Shown here one piece after another: positions 7,875 to 22,102 of a stretch of DNA of 64,000 nt. How positions within the stretch are numbered: position 1 is the stretch's first letter; every line of letters begins with the position of its first letter. The position numbers and the translations under genes are program-made. Below the pieces are notes generated by a model. It made no database searches. It worked only from the letters and a program-made list of their open reading frames with translations, and was not told the DNA's origin. Origin of the DNA: a phage; sequence record PX969468.1. One strand, given 5' to 3'.

Positions 7875-8225
7875 TTAGTAGATGTTTTGGTTGATCTCTA
7901 TTCCAAACTTCTTGAATGAGTCAGCAGCAAGCATAAATTTACGAGCCGCTGATGGGTTAGAAGTATGCACGAAAATCTTCACGTTGTCAACTACAGGAGG
8001 CTTACCAAATACAAATTTTTCCTCCAACATAGATAGGCAATCGTACCCTTCAAATACCTCTCCAAGATCGTTGTCCATGTGCCACTCAGAAACGCGCCTG
8101 TAGAGCTTTCCCTTATCGTTAATAAAATCCATAAACTCAGAGGAATTCTTTAGCCAAATAGCATCGGGGATCCCATAATTTGACGGATCTCTCAAGTCAT
8201 CCAGCCACACGATCAACTTCTTCAT
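7875..8225 (-). CDS. hypothetical protein, possible receiver-like (flavodoxin-fold) domain
   Basis: 116 codons; alternating hydrophobic strand/acidic loop pattern (LIVWLDD...SEWHMDND...KIFVHTSNP); assignment is pattern-based only. Confidence 0.3.
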   Translation of the reverse strand: MKKLIVWLDDLRDPSNYGIPDAIWLKNSSEFMDFINDKGKLYRRVSEWHMDNDLGEVFEGYDCLSMLEEKFVFGKPPVVDNVKIFVHTSNPSAARKFMLAADSFKKFGIEINQNIY

Positions 8226-9157
8226 TGCATATAGTCCTCGTTGTGGAAATAGCAGTCAAGTATCTCACGGCGTTCCTGCTCTAGGAGGCAGTTCCACACA
8301 TCTTCTGTGTAATTGTTACGAATGAAGTTTACCATGCCGTAAAACTCTTCGTCAATACGTTTAAAGATATCATCATCCCAAATCTTCCAAGCTTTACCCC
8401 TCATTACGGCCTTCCGTGCCAAATAGTATGGAGACTTGATCTTCAGCTGCAGATCATAAGGGTAGTAAGGCTTACGAATCATATACCCTTCACCTCTTGT
8501 TTCTGCAGCTAATTCTTTTGCATAGCTGAACGGAATTTCACGCACAGTGTGAGGACGTTTTGCACCAAGGTATTTGGCAATCCCATCTAAAGCTGCTTCT
8601 GGTAGCATTATTCCAGAATCATTATATCTGCAACCTATCAAATATGCGCCATGATCTTCCTGAACAATATGCGGATCTGAAGGGTGACAAATTTCAAACA
8701 TGAATGTCATGTTTTCATGGCCCATAACCTTCTTGATAAGATCTAAATTACCACATTGCTCCTGGATGGTTTCCTTTGCAAGGTTACAATATGGAGAATC
8801 AAGAGACCCGGTTGTTGAAAACAATAGTTCACCTTTATGAGATGATACCACACCAAGGAATCCGTTCTTTTTCTCTACCGCCGTCACAAGTTTATTGTCA
8901 GGCAGGTTGGTGGAGTTTTCTCCCAAATTAAACACTTTTGTGAAGGGCCATGCCACAACATTTCCTTCATTACCGACAACAATGCCTCGGCACTCTAGTA
9001 AACGCGGAGACAAATGCCATAAATTGTTGTAGAATACTTTTCTGGCATATTTGTAGATCTTTAATCCAAGATCTGGGTAATATCTGCTGGTTACAAGACC
9101 TTTGTCAACCAGGTCGTCTGCATTAAAATACTTCATCATACATTCCTCATTTGTCAT
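8222..9157 (-). CDS. RNA ligase-type covalent nucleotidyltransferase
   Basis: 311 codons; motif I K-x-N-G (EKKNGF), motif IV-like GEGYMIRKP, motif V-like LKIKSPYY; distinct from the DNA ligase at 4465..5748. Confidence 0.55.
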   Translation of the reverse strand: MTNEECMMKYFNADDLVDKGLVTSRYYPDLGLKIYKYARKVFYNNLWHLSPRLLECRGIVVGNEGNVVAWPFTKVFNLGENSTNLPDNKLVTAVEKKNGFLGVVSSHKGELLFSTTGSLDSPYCNLAKETIQEQCGNLDLIKKVMGHENMTFMFEICHPSDPHIVQEDHGAYLIGCRYNDSGIMLPEAALDGIAKYLGAKRPHTVREIPFSYAKELAAETRGEGYMIRKPYYPYDLQLKIKSPYYLARKAVMRGKAWKIWDDDIFKRIDEEFYGMVNFIRNNYTEDVWNCLLEQERREILDCYFHNEDYMQ

Positions 9158-9200
9158 TTTGTCCCTTTATTCTGCCACACAAATAACCTGGTGTCAACAC

Positions 9201-9229
9201 TTGAAATTAACAAAACAGTTAGGTATACT
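9201..9229 (+). promoter_or_regulatory. sigma70-like promoter (TTGAAA-17-TATACT) for the kinase operon
   Basis: hexamers and 17-nt spacer read directly in the divergent intergenic region. Confidence 0.45.
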
Positions 9230-9257
9230 CTCATTAAAATTAAAACGGAGAGTTACT

Positions 9258-9668
9258 ATGTCTAAAATGCTATATATCGTGCGTGGTCTACCAGGGTCTG
9301 GCAAATCAACACTGGCAAATGCGCTATCTTTAGAAGGTCTGTATCCACATTTTGAGAACGATATGTTCTGGTACGACGATGACGGCAATTACAATTGGGA
9401 TGCAAGTAAAGTAACACTTGCAGCAAAATGGTGCAAAGATAACGTAGAAGATATGATGCGTATGGGCTACGACCGTATCGTGGTAAGTAATACGTTTACA
9501 AAAGAAAAATATGTGCAAGAATATATTGACATGGCGATCAGTCATGGATATAGTTATACCGTGATCGTGGTTGAAAACCGCCATGGTAATAAAAGCATTC
9601 ATGATGTTCCAGACAGGGTTGTGGATCGTATGGAACGCCAGCTTAAAAACTGCATTAAACTTAAATGA
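9258..9668 (+). CDS. P-loop kinase, polynucleotide kinase-like
   Basis: 136 codons; Walker A GLPGSGKST near N-terminus; GGAG RBS 7 nt upstream; the track ORF starts upstream but the Met at 9258 has the RBS. Confidence 0.55.
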   Translation: MSKMLYIVRGLPGSGKSTLANALSLEGLYPHFENDMFWYDDDGNYNWDASKVTLAAKWCKDNVEDMMRMGYDRIVVSNTFTKEKYVQEYIDMAISHGYSYTVIVVENRHGNKSIHDVPDRVVDRMERQLKNCIKLK

Positions 9669-9675
9669 GGAATGT

Positions 9676-10230
9676 ATGAAATACTTTGTAACAAGCGACA
9701 CACACTTTCTCCACCAGCGGGTAATGGAGTTCGACTCATGTCAAAAACACAGATCTCAGTATGATCACAATCTTGACAGTATGAATGCGGGAATCATCAC
9801 CAAGTGGAACTCTGTTGTGTCACCTGCAGACACTGTGTTTCACTTGGGGGATATTGCGTGCACTAATGATAAGAATATCAACAAATTGCTTCCAGATGTT
9901 CTAAATATGTTGAACGGACATATTATTCTTGTTCGTGGTAACCATGACACAAGGACGACTGTCAGAATTATGAAAGAGTTCGGTCATGAGGTTGTAGATT
10001 ATTACGAGCTTCGCCACAACAAGAATTTGATCTGTATGAGCCATTACCAGTTTGCAAAGTGGAACAGAAAGCCTCACGGATCAGTCCAACTGTTCGGTCA
10101 TGCTCACGGAACCACACAGCAGTTGTTTGGCAGGCAGTTTGATGTCGGTTGGGATGTGTGGGGGAGACTCTTACCATTAGAAGAGGCATACCGTATTGCA
10201 ATGAGTCTTGCTATTGACAGCGGGGAGTAA
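9676..10230 (+). CDS. calcineurin-like metallophosphoesterase
   Basis: 184 codons; SDTHF, GDI, GNHD and GHAH motifs in canonical order. Confidence 0.6.
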   Translation: MKYFVTSDTHFLHQRVMEFDSCQKHRSQYDHNLDSMNAGIITKWNSVVSPADTVFHLGDIACTNDKNINKLLPDVLNMLNGHIILVRGNHDTRTTVRIMKEFGHEVVDYYELRHNKNLICMSHYQFAKWNRKPHGSVQLFGHAHGTTQQLFGRQFDVGWDVWGRLLPLEEAYRIAMSLAIDSGE

Positions 10231-10277: not shown

Positions 10278-10628
10278 ATGAAAGATGAGGATAAGCTGCT
10301 ATATCTTAAAGTCCCCCTTGAAATACTGTCTATGTCAAAAGTTTTGAATGGCACAACTGGGGAGGTTGTTGTTCTTGACTTATATGACAAGATCGTATAC
10401 TGCTACCTGCACAACTGGTATAAGCTTGGAGAAAATTCACGCTTCACACCCAGCACCAGGAAAATTGCAGCAGATGTTGGGATAAAGAAAACAAAAGCAG
10501 CAGCGTGCGTTAAAACTTTAGAATGTGCAGGAGTGGTTGAAATATCCACACAAGGGAGAGGTAAAAGATGCACATTTTCCAAAGTTTTGCCACCAGAAGA
10601 AGTTATTCGAATGTCAACAACTGGTTAG
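10278..10628 (+). CDS. putative DNA-binding protein (winged-helix/HTH-like)
   Basis: 116 codons; segment TRKIAADVGIKKTKAAACVKTLECAGVVEI has helix-turn-helix character; GGAG RBS. Confidence 0.35.
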   Translation: MKDEDKLLYLKVPLEILSMSKVLNGTTGEVVVLDLYDKIVYCYLHNWYKLGENSRFTPSTRKIAADVGIKKTKAAACVKTLECAGVVEISTQGRGKRCTFSKVLPPEEVIRMSTTG

Positions 10629-10702
10629 ACCAGTAAAAACTTAAACATCTGTACTATAAGGATTTGTATGTTTTATGTTCACTCTGGAGCAGAAGTTAGT
10701 AA

Positions 10703-10783
10703 CTGTCCGTGATACGGACACTACTGTCCGTCACGCGGACACATCTGCCCGTAATACGGACACTAACTGTCCGTGATACGGAC
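10703..10783. repeat. four tandem 17-bp palindromic sites TGTCCGT-N3-ACGGACA spaced 21-22 bp apart
   Basis: copies at 10703, 10724, 10745, 10767; first and fourth are perfect palindromes, second and third have 1-2 substitutions. Confidence 0.85.
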
Positions 10784-10826
10784 ACATAAAGAATATAACT
10801 AAAATAACTAAATAATAAAAAATAAA

Positions 10827-10886
10827 AGATCTAGTACTTATGGTACTAAAGTACATATACTTAACTTATGTAGAATATACTAGATC
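10827..10886. repeat. AT-rich region with inverted repeat GATCTAGTA...TACTAGATC containing two GATC sites
   Basis: 9-bp arms about 40 bp apart read directly; internal GTAC-rich palindromic segments. Confidence 0.7.
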
Positions 10887-10919
10887 CTAAGTACCATGTT
10901 TTAAATTTATTACTTATTA

Positions 10920-11285
10920 TGGGTAGTGTCGGCCCTTCATTGGCACTCGCCTACGAGGGGCGAGATGCCGGGCCTCCATAGTGCACACAATAACAGAAGT
11001 GCATACATGCAGGACTGTTAACATGTGTGGGAACGAAGCGATAGCGCAGGCCAAAGGCCGAGCACTAATGTGGACCACCGACGAAAGCTTGCCAGCGCCG
11101 GAAGGAGTCGGTTGAGAGCCTCCCGCGCGAGTTCGGATAAAGTTTATGTGTGGAAACTGACAAGAAGGACCCTAAATCGCTCCACAGCTATATAAACTAT
11201 ACCAAGTAAGGCAATCGCACCAGTTTGATAGAAAAGCTCGTTACAAAGCGATACAGTGAGTTTTTCTATAACTTGAAGAGGAGGC
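10920..11285 (+). other. GC-rich structured noncoding segment (candidate ncRNA)
   Basis: no ORF of 60 codons or more on either strand across 10629..11289; nested complementary stems such as GGCCC...GGGCC, CGCC...GGCG, GGCC-AAA-GGCC, GGAG...CTCC. Confidence 0.3.
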
Positions 11286-11289
11286 TGCT

Positions 11290-11868
11290 ATGAGTTCACG
11301 CAAAGATGCCAGTGAAAAGATTGCAAAACGTTATCAGAATGAAGAACAGATGGAGAAAACTTTCAAGTGGAAGCCAGGTTTCCAGCGTAATCATTCTAAC
11401 GCTCGTGATCGTAAGCATCCTGATAAGTGGCTAACACCGCCAAATGATGGCATGCAGGTTGGTGATGAGAAGGAGCTATCACCTGGAAAAGATGGCAACT
11501 ACATTCGCACTAAGGACGCTAGTCCAAAGGATGACAGCTATCTTGTAGATAAGGTTCTTAATGGTATTGATGTAGATGTTGACACTACACGGAACTTTTT
11601 TCTTGGGTGGTATCGCACAGGTTTTTTCGACATCAAGGCCATTCGTCGTGTTTGTGATATTAAAAAGTCTGCATATGATGACGACTCGTTACATCGCACA
11701 CTGAGACAATATTCAGAAAGATATGGTCATCCGGTTATCACTCTTGACGATGTTAACGAAGTGATGTATCATGCAGAGGTTGTTGCAGGCAGATTTGGTG
11801 ATGCATATCTTGATATCCTTTCTGCAAACGATGAGGTAATGTTGAATAAGATTTACTACGAACGTTGA
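11290..11868 (+). CDS. hypothetical protein
   Basis: 192 codons; strong RBS GAGGAGG; N-terminal half charged/low complexity. Confidence 0.5.
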   Translation: MSSRKDASEKIAKRYQNEEQMEKTFKWKPGFQRNHSNARDRKHPDKWLTPPNDGMQVGDEKELSPGKDGNYIRTKDASPKDDSYLVDKVLNGIDVDVDTTRNFFLGWYRTGFFDIKAIRRVCDIKKSAYDDDSLHRTLRQYSERYGHPVITLDDVNEVMYHAEVVAGRFGDAYLDILSANDEVMLNKIYYER

Positions 11869-12386: not shown

Positions 12387-12674
12387 GGTTGTTTTCGTGT
12401 ATCATGATGAATATCCAATTTAAAGATGAGTTTGATGGCTTTATCTCCGGATGCTTTGAAACAGGGTTCGGAGAAGGCTGAGTTACCCTTAGAGGGCTTG
12501 ATAGTGCACCACACTTAAAATGGTAGGGGCAGCCAGCACATGACGATGTGACCCCAGCCAACCTGTAATAAGGTCGAGCCAGAGCGCGGTAATGGGTATC
12601 TGGTAACCCACTCGTTGGGTCTTGTTGGTCCAGGACGCTGGGCAAGTCGCAGGGAACACCACCCTGCGGCGAAC
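12387..12674 (+). other. GC-rich noncoding segment with a 26-codon mini-ORF and stable stems (candidate leader or sRNA)
   Basis: overlapping ORFs on both strands indicate absence of stops rather than coding; lies between a gene end and a consensus promoter. Confidence 0.25.
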
Positions 12675-12703
12675 TTGACAATCAGTATTTGCCGTGATAA
12701 AAT
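12675..12703 (+). promoter_or_regulatory. sigma70-like promoter TTGACA-17-TAAAAT with TG extension
   Basis: perfect -35, 17-nt spacer, near-consensus -10; 29 nt upstream of GGAGG RBS and ATG at 12732. Confidence 0.6.
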
Positions 12704-12731
12704 CCACCTATCACGTGATAATGGAGGAAAC

Positions 12732-13166: not shown

Positions 13167-13241
13167 GCCCTGTTAGCTTAGTGGATAAAGCAGCGGCCTT
13201 CTAAGCCGTTGACACTGGTTCGAGTCCAGTACGGGGTGCCA
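13167..13241 (+). tRNA. tRNA-Arg (anticodon TCT)
   Basis: hand-folded cloverleaf: acceptor GCCCTGT/ACGGGGT (two G-U), D-arm GCTT/AAGC, anticodon loop CTTCTAA, T-arm ACTGG-TTCGAGT-CCAGT, encoded CCA. Confidence 0.6.
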
Positions 13242-13245
13242 AATT

Positions 13246-13332
13246 GGGGAGTTATCCCGTAGAGGTAGCGGTGTAGACTGTAAATCTATTGTCATTGCGA
13301 CTCGGGTGGTTCGACTCCACCACTCCCCACCA
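13246..13332 (+). tRNA. tRNA-Tyr (anticodon GTA), long variable arm
   Basis: acceptor GGGGAGT/ACTCCCC, anticodon stem GTAGA/TCTAT with loop CTGTAAA, T-arm GGTGG-TTCGACT-CCACC, encoded CCA. Confidence 0.6.
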
Positions 13333-13446
13333 AATTTATATTTTTAAATGCATAAATCATACAGATAATGACATTGATATTTATCGTCGTTTATACTAGT
13401 CACTAACTGCTCGAAAATCAGTGTCATTATCAGTGTAATTTATAAA

Positions 13447-13537
13447 GGAGGGTAGGGAGCAATGGTGCTCAAGCGGTCTTGAAAACCGTCCCGTTGAGGA
13501 TGACTCGATGATGGTTCGATTCCATTACTCTCCGCCA
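13447..13537 (+). tRNA. tRNA-Ser (anticodon TGA), long variable arm
   Basis: acceptor GGAGGGT/ACTCTCC, anticodon stem-loop GCGGT-CTTGAAA-ACCGT, T-loop TTCGATT, encoded CCA. Confidence 0.55.
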
Positions 13538-13635
13538 CATTGTTGACCTTGTAATTAAGCGAAAGCCGGAAGCAGAACCGGATTATCAAATGTTACAGTC
13601 GTCATCGCCGACTAGCCACATGGTCAACATATTGC

Positions 13636-13735
13636 GCTAGGTAAGCCCTTTGGCAAGGGCGAGGATTTTTAATCCTGAAAATAGACGAGGTAGTCGTTGA
13701 ATACATAGGTGGTTCGATTCCATCACCTAGCACCT
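13636..13735 (+). pseudogene. atypical tRNA-like element (Lys-TTT-like 5' half, ~30-nt insert, no encoded CCA)
   Basis: perfect 7-bp acceptor GCTAGGT/ACCTAGC, D-arm GCCC/GGGC, anticodon-like loop TTTTTAA, T-arm GGTGG-TTCGATT-CCATC, but about 30 nt between anticodon arm and T-arm and CCT instead of CCA. Confidence 0.3.
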
Positions 13736-13738
13736 TTT

Positions 13739-13814
13739 GCTGATGTAGCACAATTGGCAGTGCAATTGATTTGTAATCAATAGGTTGCAGGTTCAAGTCC
13801 TGCCATCAGCACCA
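13739..13814 (+). tRNA. tRNA-Thr (anticodon TGT)
   Basis: perfect acceptor GCTGATG/CATCAGC, D-arm GCAC/GTGC, anticodon stem ATTGA/TCAAT loop TTTGTAA, T-arm GCAGG-TTCAAGT-CCTGC, encoded CCA. Confidence 0.7.
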
Positions 13815-13815
13815 T

Positions 13816-13890
13816 GGCCCTGTAGCTGGAAGGTTCAAGCAAGCGACTCATAATCGCCAGACGGTGGTTCAATTCCACCCAGGGCCACCA
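13816..13890 (+). tRNA. tRNA-Met or Ile2 (anticodon CAT)
   Basis: perfect acceptor GGCCCTG/CAGGGCC, anticodon loop CTCATAA, T-arm GGTGG-TTCAATT-CCACC, encoded CCA. Confidence 0.6.
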
Positions 13891-13901
13891 AATAATAAAT
13901 A

Positions 13902-13978
13902 CTCCGCGTAGCTCAGCTTGGTAGAGCGCCTGATTTGGGATCAGGAGGTCGAGTGTTCGAATCACTCCGTGGAGACCA
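13902..13978 (+). tRNA. tRNA-Pro (anticodon TGG)
   Basis: acceptor CTCCGCG/CGTGGAG, canonical D-arm GCTC-AGCTTGGTA-GAGC, anticodon stem CCTGA/TCAGG loop TTTGGGA, T-arm GAGTG-TTCGAAT-CACTC, encoded CCA. Confidence 0.7.
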
Positions 13979-21091: not shown

Positions 21092-22102
21092 ATGATTACT
21101 CGTAAAGATGAATTTGGCATTGTCGATTTAGGTGCTACTCTGGACCTTGTTCCGCGTCAATTTCGCCTGATTACCGGTATGGATCTGTTCGAAACTCGTC
21201 TCGGCACCTCAACAATTGCTCAGATTGAACGTGTTGATGAAGTTGTAACCGACATTCCGGCACGCCGTCGTGGTGGTGAGCGTAACTACGTGGGTAGTGA
21301 ACGTGCTCAGGTTAAAAACCTGAACATCCCGTTCTTCCCTCTGGACAAAGGCATCACCGCAGCAGATGTTCAGAACTTCCGTCGTTACTTCACCCCTGAT
21401 GCTCCGAAAACTGTTCAGGACGTAGTAACCCGCGTTGTTCGCCGTATCCGTGTTTCTCATGAAGCACTGCGTGAGAAAGCACTGTTCCAGGCTATTCTGG
21501 GTAAATCCTATGCGCCTGGTGACACAACCTGTCAGTATGACTACTACACTCTGTGGGGTGTGTCTCAGAAGTCTGTTGAGATTGACCCTGCAAAAGCAGA
21601 TCAGGATCCGATGGAGGTTCTGGAAGAAGCTCGTCTGCACATCGCGCTGCAAGCTGGCGATAACGCAGCTGGCTATCGTATTGTAGCCCTGTGCTCACCA
21701 GAGTTCTTCAGTGCTATTACCCATCACCCTCTGGTAGAACTGGCATACACCTATTACGGCTCTGCTCAGGAACCTCTGCGTCGCCGTCTGGGTGCTGGCG
21801 GTCAAGACAGCGTATACCGTGTGTTTGAGCATAAAGGTATCACCTTTATCGAAGATATCTCTGGCAATATTCCTAAGAAAGAAGCTCGCATTCTGCCGAT
21901 GGGTATTGATCAGATGTTCCAGCTGCACTTTGCTCCGGCAGACGATGTTAACGAAGCAAACACCCCAGCACAGGAACTGTACATGTGGTATAAACACTCT
22001 GCATACCTGCGTGAAGAGAAGATTGAATCTGAAACTTCTATGCTGGCAGTTAACACCCGTCCAGAGCTGGTTGTTAAAGTAACTCTGAAAAACGGTGACT
22101 AA
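21092..22102 (+). CDS. major capsid protein (probable)
   Basis: 336 codons; follows scaffold and decoration genes; strong terminator follows. Confidence 0.6.
   Translation: MITRKDEFGIVDLGATLDLVPRQFRLITGMDLFETRLGTSTIAQIERVDEVVTDIPARRRGGERNYVGSERAQVKNLNIPFFPLDKGITAADVQNFRRYFTPDAPKTVQDVVTRVVRRIRVSHEALREKALFQAILGKSYAPGDTTCQYDYYTLWGVSQKSVEIDPAKADQDPMEVLEEARLHIALQAGDNAAGYRIVALCSPEFFSAITHHPLVELAYTYYGSAQEPLRRRLGAGGQDSVYRVFEHKGITFIEDISGNIPKKEARILPMGIDQMFQLHFAPADDVNEANTPAQELYMWYKHSAYLREEKIESETSMLAVNTRPELVVKVTLKNGD

Follow-up and report, generated by a model that had tools for sequence, protein, structure and literature searches.

A predicted structured element beside a candidate replication origin in rV5-like coliphages and on phage-like plasmids

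Replication origins of the lambda type are built from palindromic iterons beside an A+T-rich region, and at other origins a transcript takes part in initiation, as with the RNA II primer of ColE1, the rep transcript that primes origins of the pAMbeta1 type, and the R-loops at oriF and oriG of T4. We know of no conserved structured flank of about 360 nt at ori-lambda. Here we analyze a stretch of 64,000 nucleotides (sequence record PX969468.1, referred to as the window; coordinates count from its first letter) from an rV5-like coliphage of the genus Vequintavirus, and describe a non-coding element at 10926-11289 that adjoins an origin-like region. We propose (with a probability of roughly 0.4) that this element flanks the origin, acts in cis and adopts a single-strand fold, RNA within a rightward transcript being its most likely form. 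It probably acts at or near the origin, and not as a free small RNA, because it is shared with phage-like plasmids on which it also lies beside what looks like a replication origin.

The intergenic gap that contains the element (10629-11289) lies between the genes of a 116-amino-acid (aa) winged-helix protein (10278-10628) and a 192-aa protein (11290-11868), and the genes neighboring the element are all on the + strand. To the left of the element we find the following features.

10278-10628, + strand: gene of the 116-aa winged-helix protein, initiator-like, putative cognate partner of the iterons (PHROG phrog_12838, Pfam, RefSeq name)
10700-10785, no strand assigned: four palindromic direct repeats of 21-22 bp, TAACTGTCCGTGATACGGACAC, iteron-like (repeat search; spacing 21, 21, 22)
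10786-10897, no strand assigned: A+T-rich stretch (10786-10830), then an inverted repeat, GATCTAGTA (10828-36) and TACTAGATC (10878-86); GC content (GC) 0.35 (from the sequence)

By analogy, 10700-10897 looks like a lambda-type replication origin of rV5-like phages, with four repeats about two helical turns apart, an adjoining A+T-rich region and an initiator-like gene nearby. The inverted repeat after the A+T-rich stretch is 9 bp long. Records of relatives annotate the 10700-10785 region as a repeat_region of period 21, and none annotates the candidate origin as such. The likeness to ori-lambda and the O protein lies in the dyad symmetry of the four repeats, in the order of A+T-rich stretch and inverted repeat after them, in the match of the neighboring winged-helix gene to O-like and replication-initiator PHROGs, and in the joint exchange of initiator and iterons described below. 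It concerns the region left of the element and not the element itself. In contrast to ori-lambda, the phage iterons lie outside the initiator gene, and the initiator-like protein lacks an O-like C-terminal domain since it has only 116 aa. This protein matches phrog_12838, “replication initiation protein”, at 2e-77 and other initiator PHROGs more weakly (PHROG names on initiator-like proteins are annotations), and Pfam DUF6945/HTH_36 at threshold. Its rV5 homolog, gp075, is named “replication initiation protein” in RefSeq.

Two divergent relatives, a contig from IMG/VR (L003) and a Logan contig (L014), separate the gap into two parts. Homology between the window and L003 begins abruptly at about 10925, a few bases 5' of the first hairpin of the element (block A), and everything upstream is unrelated, the origin-like cassette being replaced. 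The stretch 10786-10897 is thus kept within the genus and unrelated in L003. Both relatives have a different repeat and a different winged-helix protein in place of those of the window. In L014, a 143-aa winged-helix protein that matches initiator PHROGs comes first; behind it lie five or more copies of a different 23-bp palindrome, and the structured element known from the window comes next. As these comparisons indicate, initiator and iterons are exchanged as a cassette next to a constant structured flank, so that the element forms the constant half, and 10700-10897 the variable half, of a two-part intergenic region.

The element had been picked out by a model from the letters and a list of open reading frames (ORFs), and much of this original prediction holds. 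In the gap, neither strand has an ORF that reaches 60 codons, the maximum being 56 aa (+) and 53 aa (-), and the small conserved protein gene that was named as a possible refutation was not found. The element is taken to be non-coding because every small ORF is broken in divergent relatives. The four complementary stretches that had been listed are all present, among them GGCCC/GGGCC (10931-35 with 10970-74), with an inner stem around CGCCTACGAGGGGCG, further GGCCAAAGGCC at 11049-59, and GGAG...CTCC (11104-07 with 11120-23). The description as a GC-rich segment in an AT-rich genome stands in a milder form: GC is 0.52 in 10900-11199 vs. 0.35-0.45 in the flanks, but the contrast is modest because the window is only moderately AT-rich (GC about 0.43-0.44). 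In agreement with the statement that no family could be named, 10629-11289 gave no match to Rfam 15 at the gathering threshold and, at E up to 10, nothing above chance level (e.g., rli43 with 24.6 bits vs. 100 needed, mostly upstream). ARAGORN detected no tRNA or tmRNA within the element, and its plasmid copies had no Rfam match either.

The suggested check by RNA folding also came out positive. The minimum free energy (MFE) of a 375-nt stretch is -121.5 kcal/mol vs. -106.3 ± 5.1 kcal/mol for dinucleotide shuffles (z = -3.0, with none of 100 shuffles reaching it); the 5' hairpins and the last hairpin contribute most of this stability. At the nucleotide level the element is 84.5% identical to L003, compared with 83% for the coding sequence of the 192-aa protein. 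Identity reaches 94% in block A (the value for L003 and L014 alike), 88% in the core and 91% in the last hairpin with the Shine-Dalgarno sequence (SD) (11228-11289; 88-91% in L003/L014). Conservation of the core exceeds that of real genes and has no third-position pattern. Judged by these identities, the element is conserved at or above the level of the neighboring genes and is under selection. Its parts are as follows.

10931-10974, + strand: 5' hairpin (block A) with outer stem GGCCC/GGGCC and inner stem GGCACUCGCC/GGGCGAG-a-UGCC; MFE -28 kcal/mol
10978-11023, + strand: variable, dispensable hairpin CACACA..UAACAG...CUGUUA..UGUGUG; 14 of 42 columns invariant
11024-11129, + strand: conserved core; 87 of 113 columns invariant in 13 phage copies
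11024-31, + strand: UGUGUGGG motif of the core
11038-47, + strand: core hairpin GCG[AUAG]CGC
11049-59, + strand: core hairpin GGCC[AAA]GGCC
11067-76, + strand: AAUGUGGACC of the core
11077-82 with 11107-12, + strand: core helix S1
11083-11106, + strand: 24-nt loop of the core, GAAAGCUUGCCAGCGCCGGAAGGA, invariant save position 18 (G or U among phages)
11120-29, + strand: invariant CUCCCGCGCG of the core
11130-11166, + strand: variable linker with a second UGUGUGG (11147-53); 16 of 39 columns invariant (alignments)
11167-11222, + strand: 3' domain with CCCUAAAU (11170-77), hairpins h3 and h4, and GGCAAUCGCA (11210-19); present in all plasmids including CP134895
11179-88, + strand: hairpin h3, GCU[CCAC]AGC
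11190-11202, + strand: hairpin h4, loop containing AAC
11228-69, + strand: last hairpin, AUAGAAAAGCUC...GAGUUUUUCUAU (single-sequence and consensus folds)
11278-84, + strand: SD GAGGAGG of gene 11290

The core is present in a single copy. In plasmid CP020521, two pairs of block A have changed from G-C to U-A in a compensatory manner. In rV5 and Murica, an 18-nt deletion removes the 5' arm of the 10978-11023 hairpin, and the plasmids have a different, A/U-rich hairpin at the relative position of the last hairpin of the phage.

A joint alignment of 17 distinct phage and plasmid copies, which has no gaps around the core, allowed the covariation check that had been called for. In phages, S1 is formed by ACCGAC (11077-11082) and GUCGGU (11107-11112), and in plasmids by GCUGCC and GGCAGC. 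All six pairs are kept in all 17 sequences; three of them are changed on both sides between phage and plasmid, and three phages show an intermediate step from A-U to G.U. In h3, two pairs are changed on both sides (GCU/AGC, GUC/GAC, GCC/GGC), with 92% of cells paired. The stem of h4 varies among the phages (U-A, G-C, C-G), and its AAC-containing loop is retained. Taken together, 91.6% of cells are paired in the tested helices vs. 22-52% when the partner is slid. This pattern, across about three lineages, points to a structured fold of the RNA type whose base pairs are kept by compensatory substitutions.

A further helix, S2, is a candidate: GCGC and GGA of the loop could pair with UCC and GCGC in CUCCCGCGCG (11095-98 with 11125-28; 11104-06 with 11121-23), and the invariant 24-nt loop would thereby pair with the invariant CUCCCGCGC to form an H-type pseudoknot. 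CUCCCGCGCG has alternative G.U partners in UGUGUGGG (11024-31), as in the single-sequence MFE structure, or in the second UGUGUGG (11147-53), and CUCCCGCGC could instead pair with the G/U-rich UGUGUGGG motifs on either side. A pairing of UGUGUGGG with CCCGCGCG would compete with the pseudoknot. Long-range pairs that RNAalifold predicted from the phages only (GAGCGA with UCGCUC; the 5' end with the SD) were dropped, being unsupported by L003 and the plasmids. The palindrome GUGGACCAC (11070-78; U-A, C-G and U.G variation) has a loop of 1-3 nt and competes with S1; it was kept only as a possible alternative.

With blastn and tblastn against phages, the element and both flanking proteins were found in the genus Vequintavirus only. 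The 10600-11300 region is 99% identical to phage ECP26, and 119 phage records carry it at 91-99%. Outside of phages, blastn against complete E. coli genomes and PLSDB revealed the core (11063-11129) at 85% identity on circular plasmids of 13.2-13.9 kb (CP020521, CP178698, CP035869, CP148565, CP134895 and CP043822, the last a head-to-tail trimer assembly), one of which also has the 5' hairpin at 87% identity. A hidden Markov model (HMM) of the phage copies aligned about 200-240 nt of the plasmids (nhmmer, E 1e-21 to 1e-22). A search of 72,556 plasmids and 50,697 phages (blastn, word 11) gave only Vequintavirus and the ~13-kb plasmids. A metagenome scan with exact patterns gave ten matches: two plasmid-type copies, four phage-type copies and four that fell into GC-rich genes by chance. 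No copy was present in 185,579 species-representative genomes (exact patterns gave 0 matches and one chance match, L031, in a Bacteroidetes gene), and IMG/VR contained a single relative contig. Therefore, as far as these collections reach, the family is narrow: one phage genus and these plasmids. The plasmid-type set (L015-L020, L025, L030) consists of the six named plasmids and metagenome contigs of 13.9 and 15.5 kb.

The plasmids have the same order as the phage, with iterons, A+T-rich stretch, hairpin modules and core following each other. Each plasmid has its own four or five palindromic repeats of ~22 bp, and the hairpin modules vary in number, each being associated with (C)UGUGUGGG. Two plasmid proteins of 133 and 305 aa match O-like initiator and helicase-loader PHROGs. 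The plasmids further encode major head, Neck1/tail-completion (43% identical to that of the window), baseplate-like (51%), tape measure and winged-helix proteins; no terminase, portal, sheath or tube genes were found in them. Protein identity between plasmids and phage is 24-51%, whereas the non-coding core has 85%, with identical runs of 26 and 15 bases. Each plasmid also has an ORF-free region of ~2.3 kb, and the plasmid motif CTAATAGATAAA is not enriched in the window. At 2243-2356 of L016, and at equivalent positions in the other plasmids, the A+T-rich stretch is separated from the core by two hairpins, one C6/G5-rich (CCCCCCUAACCCCCCC/GGGGGAAUGGGGAGGG) and one of 11 bp (GCCUAAAGAG...CUCUUUAGGC). 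In minus-strand orientation, they resemble intrinsic terminators aimed at the iterons.

The gene that follows the element in the phage is the next feature of interest.

11290-11868, + strand: 192-aa protein, first gene 3' of the element (PHROG phrog_12226, unknown function)

This protein has no Pfam or NCBIfam match, its AlphaFold2 model has a pLDDT (predicted local distance difference test) of 51 and was not used for a fold search, and the L003/L014 copies are 82% identical to that of the window. A homolog with 50% identity is located on L013, a 24.5-kb Logan phage contig (DRR174583), in a tightly packed array with a DNA ligase and a pRha-domain gene. It starts 60 nt after the preceding gene and has no structured leader, so the protein family appears independent of the element. 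On the plasmids, the downstream genes differ from those of the phage, and a strong sigma-70 promoter, TTGACA-N17(TG)-TAAGAT, separates the element from the first downstream ORF. Both observations speak against a link with the downstream gene, and the element is linked to the origin-like region instead.

In the phage, the + strand of 10629-11289 contains no sigma-70-like promoter and no terminator-like site, in a scan that covers sigma-70-like but not phage-specific promoters. The rV5 record annotates a sigma-70 promoter upstream of the initiator-like gene. Since nothing interrupts the stretch from iterons to ATG and a promoter lies upstream, the element is probably part of the rightward message. 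The + strand is favored as the folding strand, though not strongly: G.U on the + strand vs. A.C occurs 11 to 3 in the tested helices. Between 10400 and 13200, the minus strand has a single sigma-70-like promoter (10653-10681); it is situated left of the element, with none to the right.

We suggest how the element might work. The + strand would be transcribed within a rightward transcript that crosses the origin into gene 11290. The folded core would then serve as a docking platform whose invariant loop and possible pseudoknot are recognized by a factor that phage and plasmids have in common; this factor could be a host protein, or else a protein that a helper phage uses in replication or transcription. 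Acting in cis next to the origin, the core would link the transcription that passes over the origin with initiation or priming; it would neither be tuned to one downstream gene nor released as a free stable RNA. As at the transcript-dependent origins, a long structured or origin-crossing transcript would be part of initiation, and, as in pAMbeta1, initiator gene, origin and element are co-oriented in the phage. Unlike ColE1 RNA II, the + strand transcript of the phage would run away from the iterons, and neither the element nor its plasmid copies match RNA I or RNA II in Rfam or share sequence similarity with them.

Several observations weigh against this proposal. Folding energies are equal on the two strands, the hairpins showing no asymmetry when folded on both (z = -2.9 for the minus strand of the 375-nt stretch), and a hand count of independent wobble events lowers the excess for the + strand to about 7 to 4. 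On the plasmids, the origin-proximal (left) edge carries a pair of terminator-like hairpins that face the minus strand. The core alone (11017-11225) has ordinary stability (z = +0.1), so that its significance rests on conservation and covariation, and the statistics are thin because the diversity comprises three lineages. S2 is invariant, so covariation lends it no support; in CP134895, S1 is replaced by an unrelated 8-bp hairpin and the S2 loop is absent, with the 3' domain kept, so the pseudoknot is not universal. The highly conserved last hairpin of the phage abuts the SD, which fits control of gene 11290. The origin itself is assigned by analogy only, and there is no enrichment of DnaA boxes. 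A sign change of the GC skew at 9-10 kb of the window, ~1-1.5 kb away, is an indirect sign in favor of an origin but is confounded with the direction of transcription; the authors of the rV5 genome paper located no origin and ascribed a nearby skew change to transcription orientation (PMC3606486).

The original prediction had left open whether the segment is a structured non-coding RNA or a structured 5' leader of gene 11290. The non-coding, conserved nature, the fold with compensatory changes and the continuation into the SD of gene 11290 agree with it; the leaderless homolog on L013 and the intervening plasmid promoter do not fit the leader. A regulatory leader of the operon at 11290, riboswitch-like or protein-binding, with the core as sensor and the variable linker plus last hairpin as expression platform, is nevertheless conceivable, if on balance improbable. 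The element reaches the SD without an intervening promoter or terminator, the last hairpin and SD are among its best-kept parts, and a covarying helix set among invariant unpaired nucleotides is a typical feature of aptamers. Additionally, CUCCCGCGC has three alternative partners (the upstream UGUGUGGG, GCGCC..GGAG and the downstream UGUGUGG), which would permit a switch, and CCUCC at 11119-23 is complementary to the SD. Yet the core is tied to no particular downstream gene, no intrinsic terminator is present, and no riboswitch of Rfam matches even at E up to 10. The operator of T4 gene 32 and the repZ leader of IncI-alpha/IncB plasmids are similar in that a hairpin loop may pair downstream, in a leader that precedes an SD and in a replication-related setting. 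They differ in that there is no sequence relation, only one stem of the element is supported by covariation, no antisense RNA gene or leader peptide is present, and the promoter cuts the plasmid copies off from the downstream genes. We consider it unlikely that the element works as single-stranded DNA beside the origin, as a signal for loading of primosome or primase (ssi- or pas-like) or of helicase, with hairpins on the + strand, the lagging-strand template of a rightward fork, recognized by a host or helper replication protein. It is true that the element adjoins iterons and an A+T-rich region in every lineage, that the hairpin modules vary in number and are often followed by (C)TG-rich motifs, and that equal folding energies on both strands are expected of DNA hairpins. 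The strong sequence conservation between phage and plasmids, in spite of the low protein identity, recalls shared priming signals, and rV5 has a T7-gp4-like primase-helicase (PMC3606486). Known ssi sites or primosome assembly sites (e.g., the G4-type site near oriR of R1), as far as general knowledge goes, are likewise hairpin-rich, strand-specific, non-coding, adjacent to iteron origins and conserved between phages and plasmids. However, blastn finds similarity to no other plasmid or phage, which sets the element apart from the ssi signals that have been described; the G.U-rich alternative helices and the possible pseudoknot, both of which would be weak in DNA, point to RNA, and the lack of DnaA box enrichment also speaks against this explanation.

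The original prediction had pointed to the small stable RNAs that several large phages encode near their tRNA genes, and this analogy is not supported: the element lacks both a promoter and a terminator of its own, is 1.9 kb away from the tRNA cluster, and its conserved partner is the iteron and A+T-rich region instead of the tRNAs or gene 11290. With stable RNA species 1 and 2 of T4 it has in common a large myovirus and a nearby tRNA cluster, but it is not tRNA-sized, has no processing signals and is tied to the iteron region. A processed stable RNA acting in trans, for instance as a decoy or sponge that occupies an RNA-binding protein of the host or a defense system, is doubtful. The segment is structured, conserved and of no known family, GGA triplets are somewhat enriched (24.7 vs. 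15.7 per kb), and one decoy could profit both the phage and putative satellites; a fixed position beside iterons and a single-copy core would be unexpected for such an RNA. There is little to recommend a double-stranded DNA site common to helper and satellite, such as a pac signal or the operator of a late regulator. Satellites commonly copy cis sites of their helpers, one plasmid was assembled as a head-to-tail trimer, and the plasmids are without terminase, but a duplex site would not be expected to show compensatory changes that keep intrastrand pairing across a 24-nt loop, and the element is away from the head-gene region (major head gene at 21092-22102). Hardly credible is a small protein, either the 56-aa rv5_gp074 or the 31- and 44-aa ORFs that some GenBank records also annotate in the gap. 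Most close isolates keep the 56-aa frame open, but it has a stop in L003 and frameshifts in L014, Phage 206 and Alma; in L003/L014 the 44-aa frame runs into stops and the 31-aa frame is shifted. Overall, all five small ORFs are interrupted by stops or frameshifts in L003/L014 and some isolates, no Pfam match was found, and the core is conserved beyond real genes without a coding pattern.

The wider locus contains RNA-related genes on both sides. Upstream of the gap are genes of an RNA ligase (T4 Rnl1-type by Pfam), a P-loop kinase (AAA_33, PNK-like) and a calcineurin-like phosphoesterase (metallophosphatase); this likely RNA/tRNA repair trio (8222-10230) sits where gene orientation and GC skew switch. 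tRNAs were found only at 13167-13978 (ARAGORN, Rfam), in a cluster of seven genes downstream of the element. Within it, a tRNA-like gene of 99 nt (13636-13734) has a four-base anticodon (atcc) according to ARAGORN and only 35.5 bits with the tRNA model of Rfam; it is labeled tRNA-Lys or “tRNA-OTHER” in relatives and could be intron-containing or otherwise aberrant. A second GC-rich (0.52-0.55), ORF-poor stretch at 12387-12731 is 91.6% identical in L003/L014, vs. 83-86% for the flanking genes, and may be a second structured non-coding element (MFE z = -1.9; no Rfam match; no plasmid counterpart). At its 3' end is a near-consensus promoter, TTGACA-17-TAAAAT with TG (12675-12703). We also observed that eighteen MG0656xx records named “Campylobacter phage” (host Campylobacter jejuni) carry the E. 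coli rV5-type locus at 95-96%, and their host labels look doubtful.

Judging by their gene content and the shared core, the ~13-kb plasmids look like undescribed extrachromosomal satellites of rV5-like phages. We found no paper describing them in the literature, and nothing applicable on satellites, non-coding RNAs or transcriptomes of rV5/Vequintavirus or on consensus sequences of ssi sites. Like the PLE satellites of ICP1, which combine a RepA and iterons of their own with the replisome of a virulent helper, they have their own initiator-like proteins and iterons, together with a partial set of rV5-like virion genes. To our knowledge, no conserved structured element is shared between PLE and its helper. 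The plasmids are extrachromosomal circles, in contrast to the integrated PLE islands, and are putative satellites known here from sequence. rV5 and ICP1 share the replisome type with Pol A and a gp4-like protein (PMC3606486). A more speculative proposal, which we regard as rather unlikely in its full form, is that the plasmids represent a new satellite family of virulent rV5-like phages and that the core, as RNA or single-stranded DNA, is a shared landing pad. It would recruit the replication machinery of the helper or a common host factor beside interchangeable initiator-iteron cassettes, and let the satellite amplify upon helper infection.

Structured neighbors of origins and structured leaders are already known kinds of element. 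What appears to be new is a constant structured core beside interchangeable initiator-iteron cassettes that is common to a virulent phage and to plasmid-like putative satellites. If the element were only the leader of one phage gene, it would still be a new cis-regulatory motif, modest and of narrow distribution. rV5-like phages (Vequintavirus) are widely used candidates for therapy and biocontrol whose origin and early regulation are unmapped, and the locus provides a concrete candidate origin. The presence of the core on plasmids with head, neck, baseplate and tape-measure genes, and without terminase or portal, suggests a possible helper-satellite pair with a virulent coliphage, and the shared non-coding element would be the most direct handle on this interaction between phage and plasmid.

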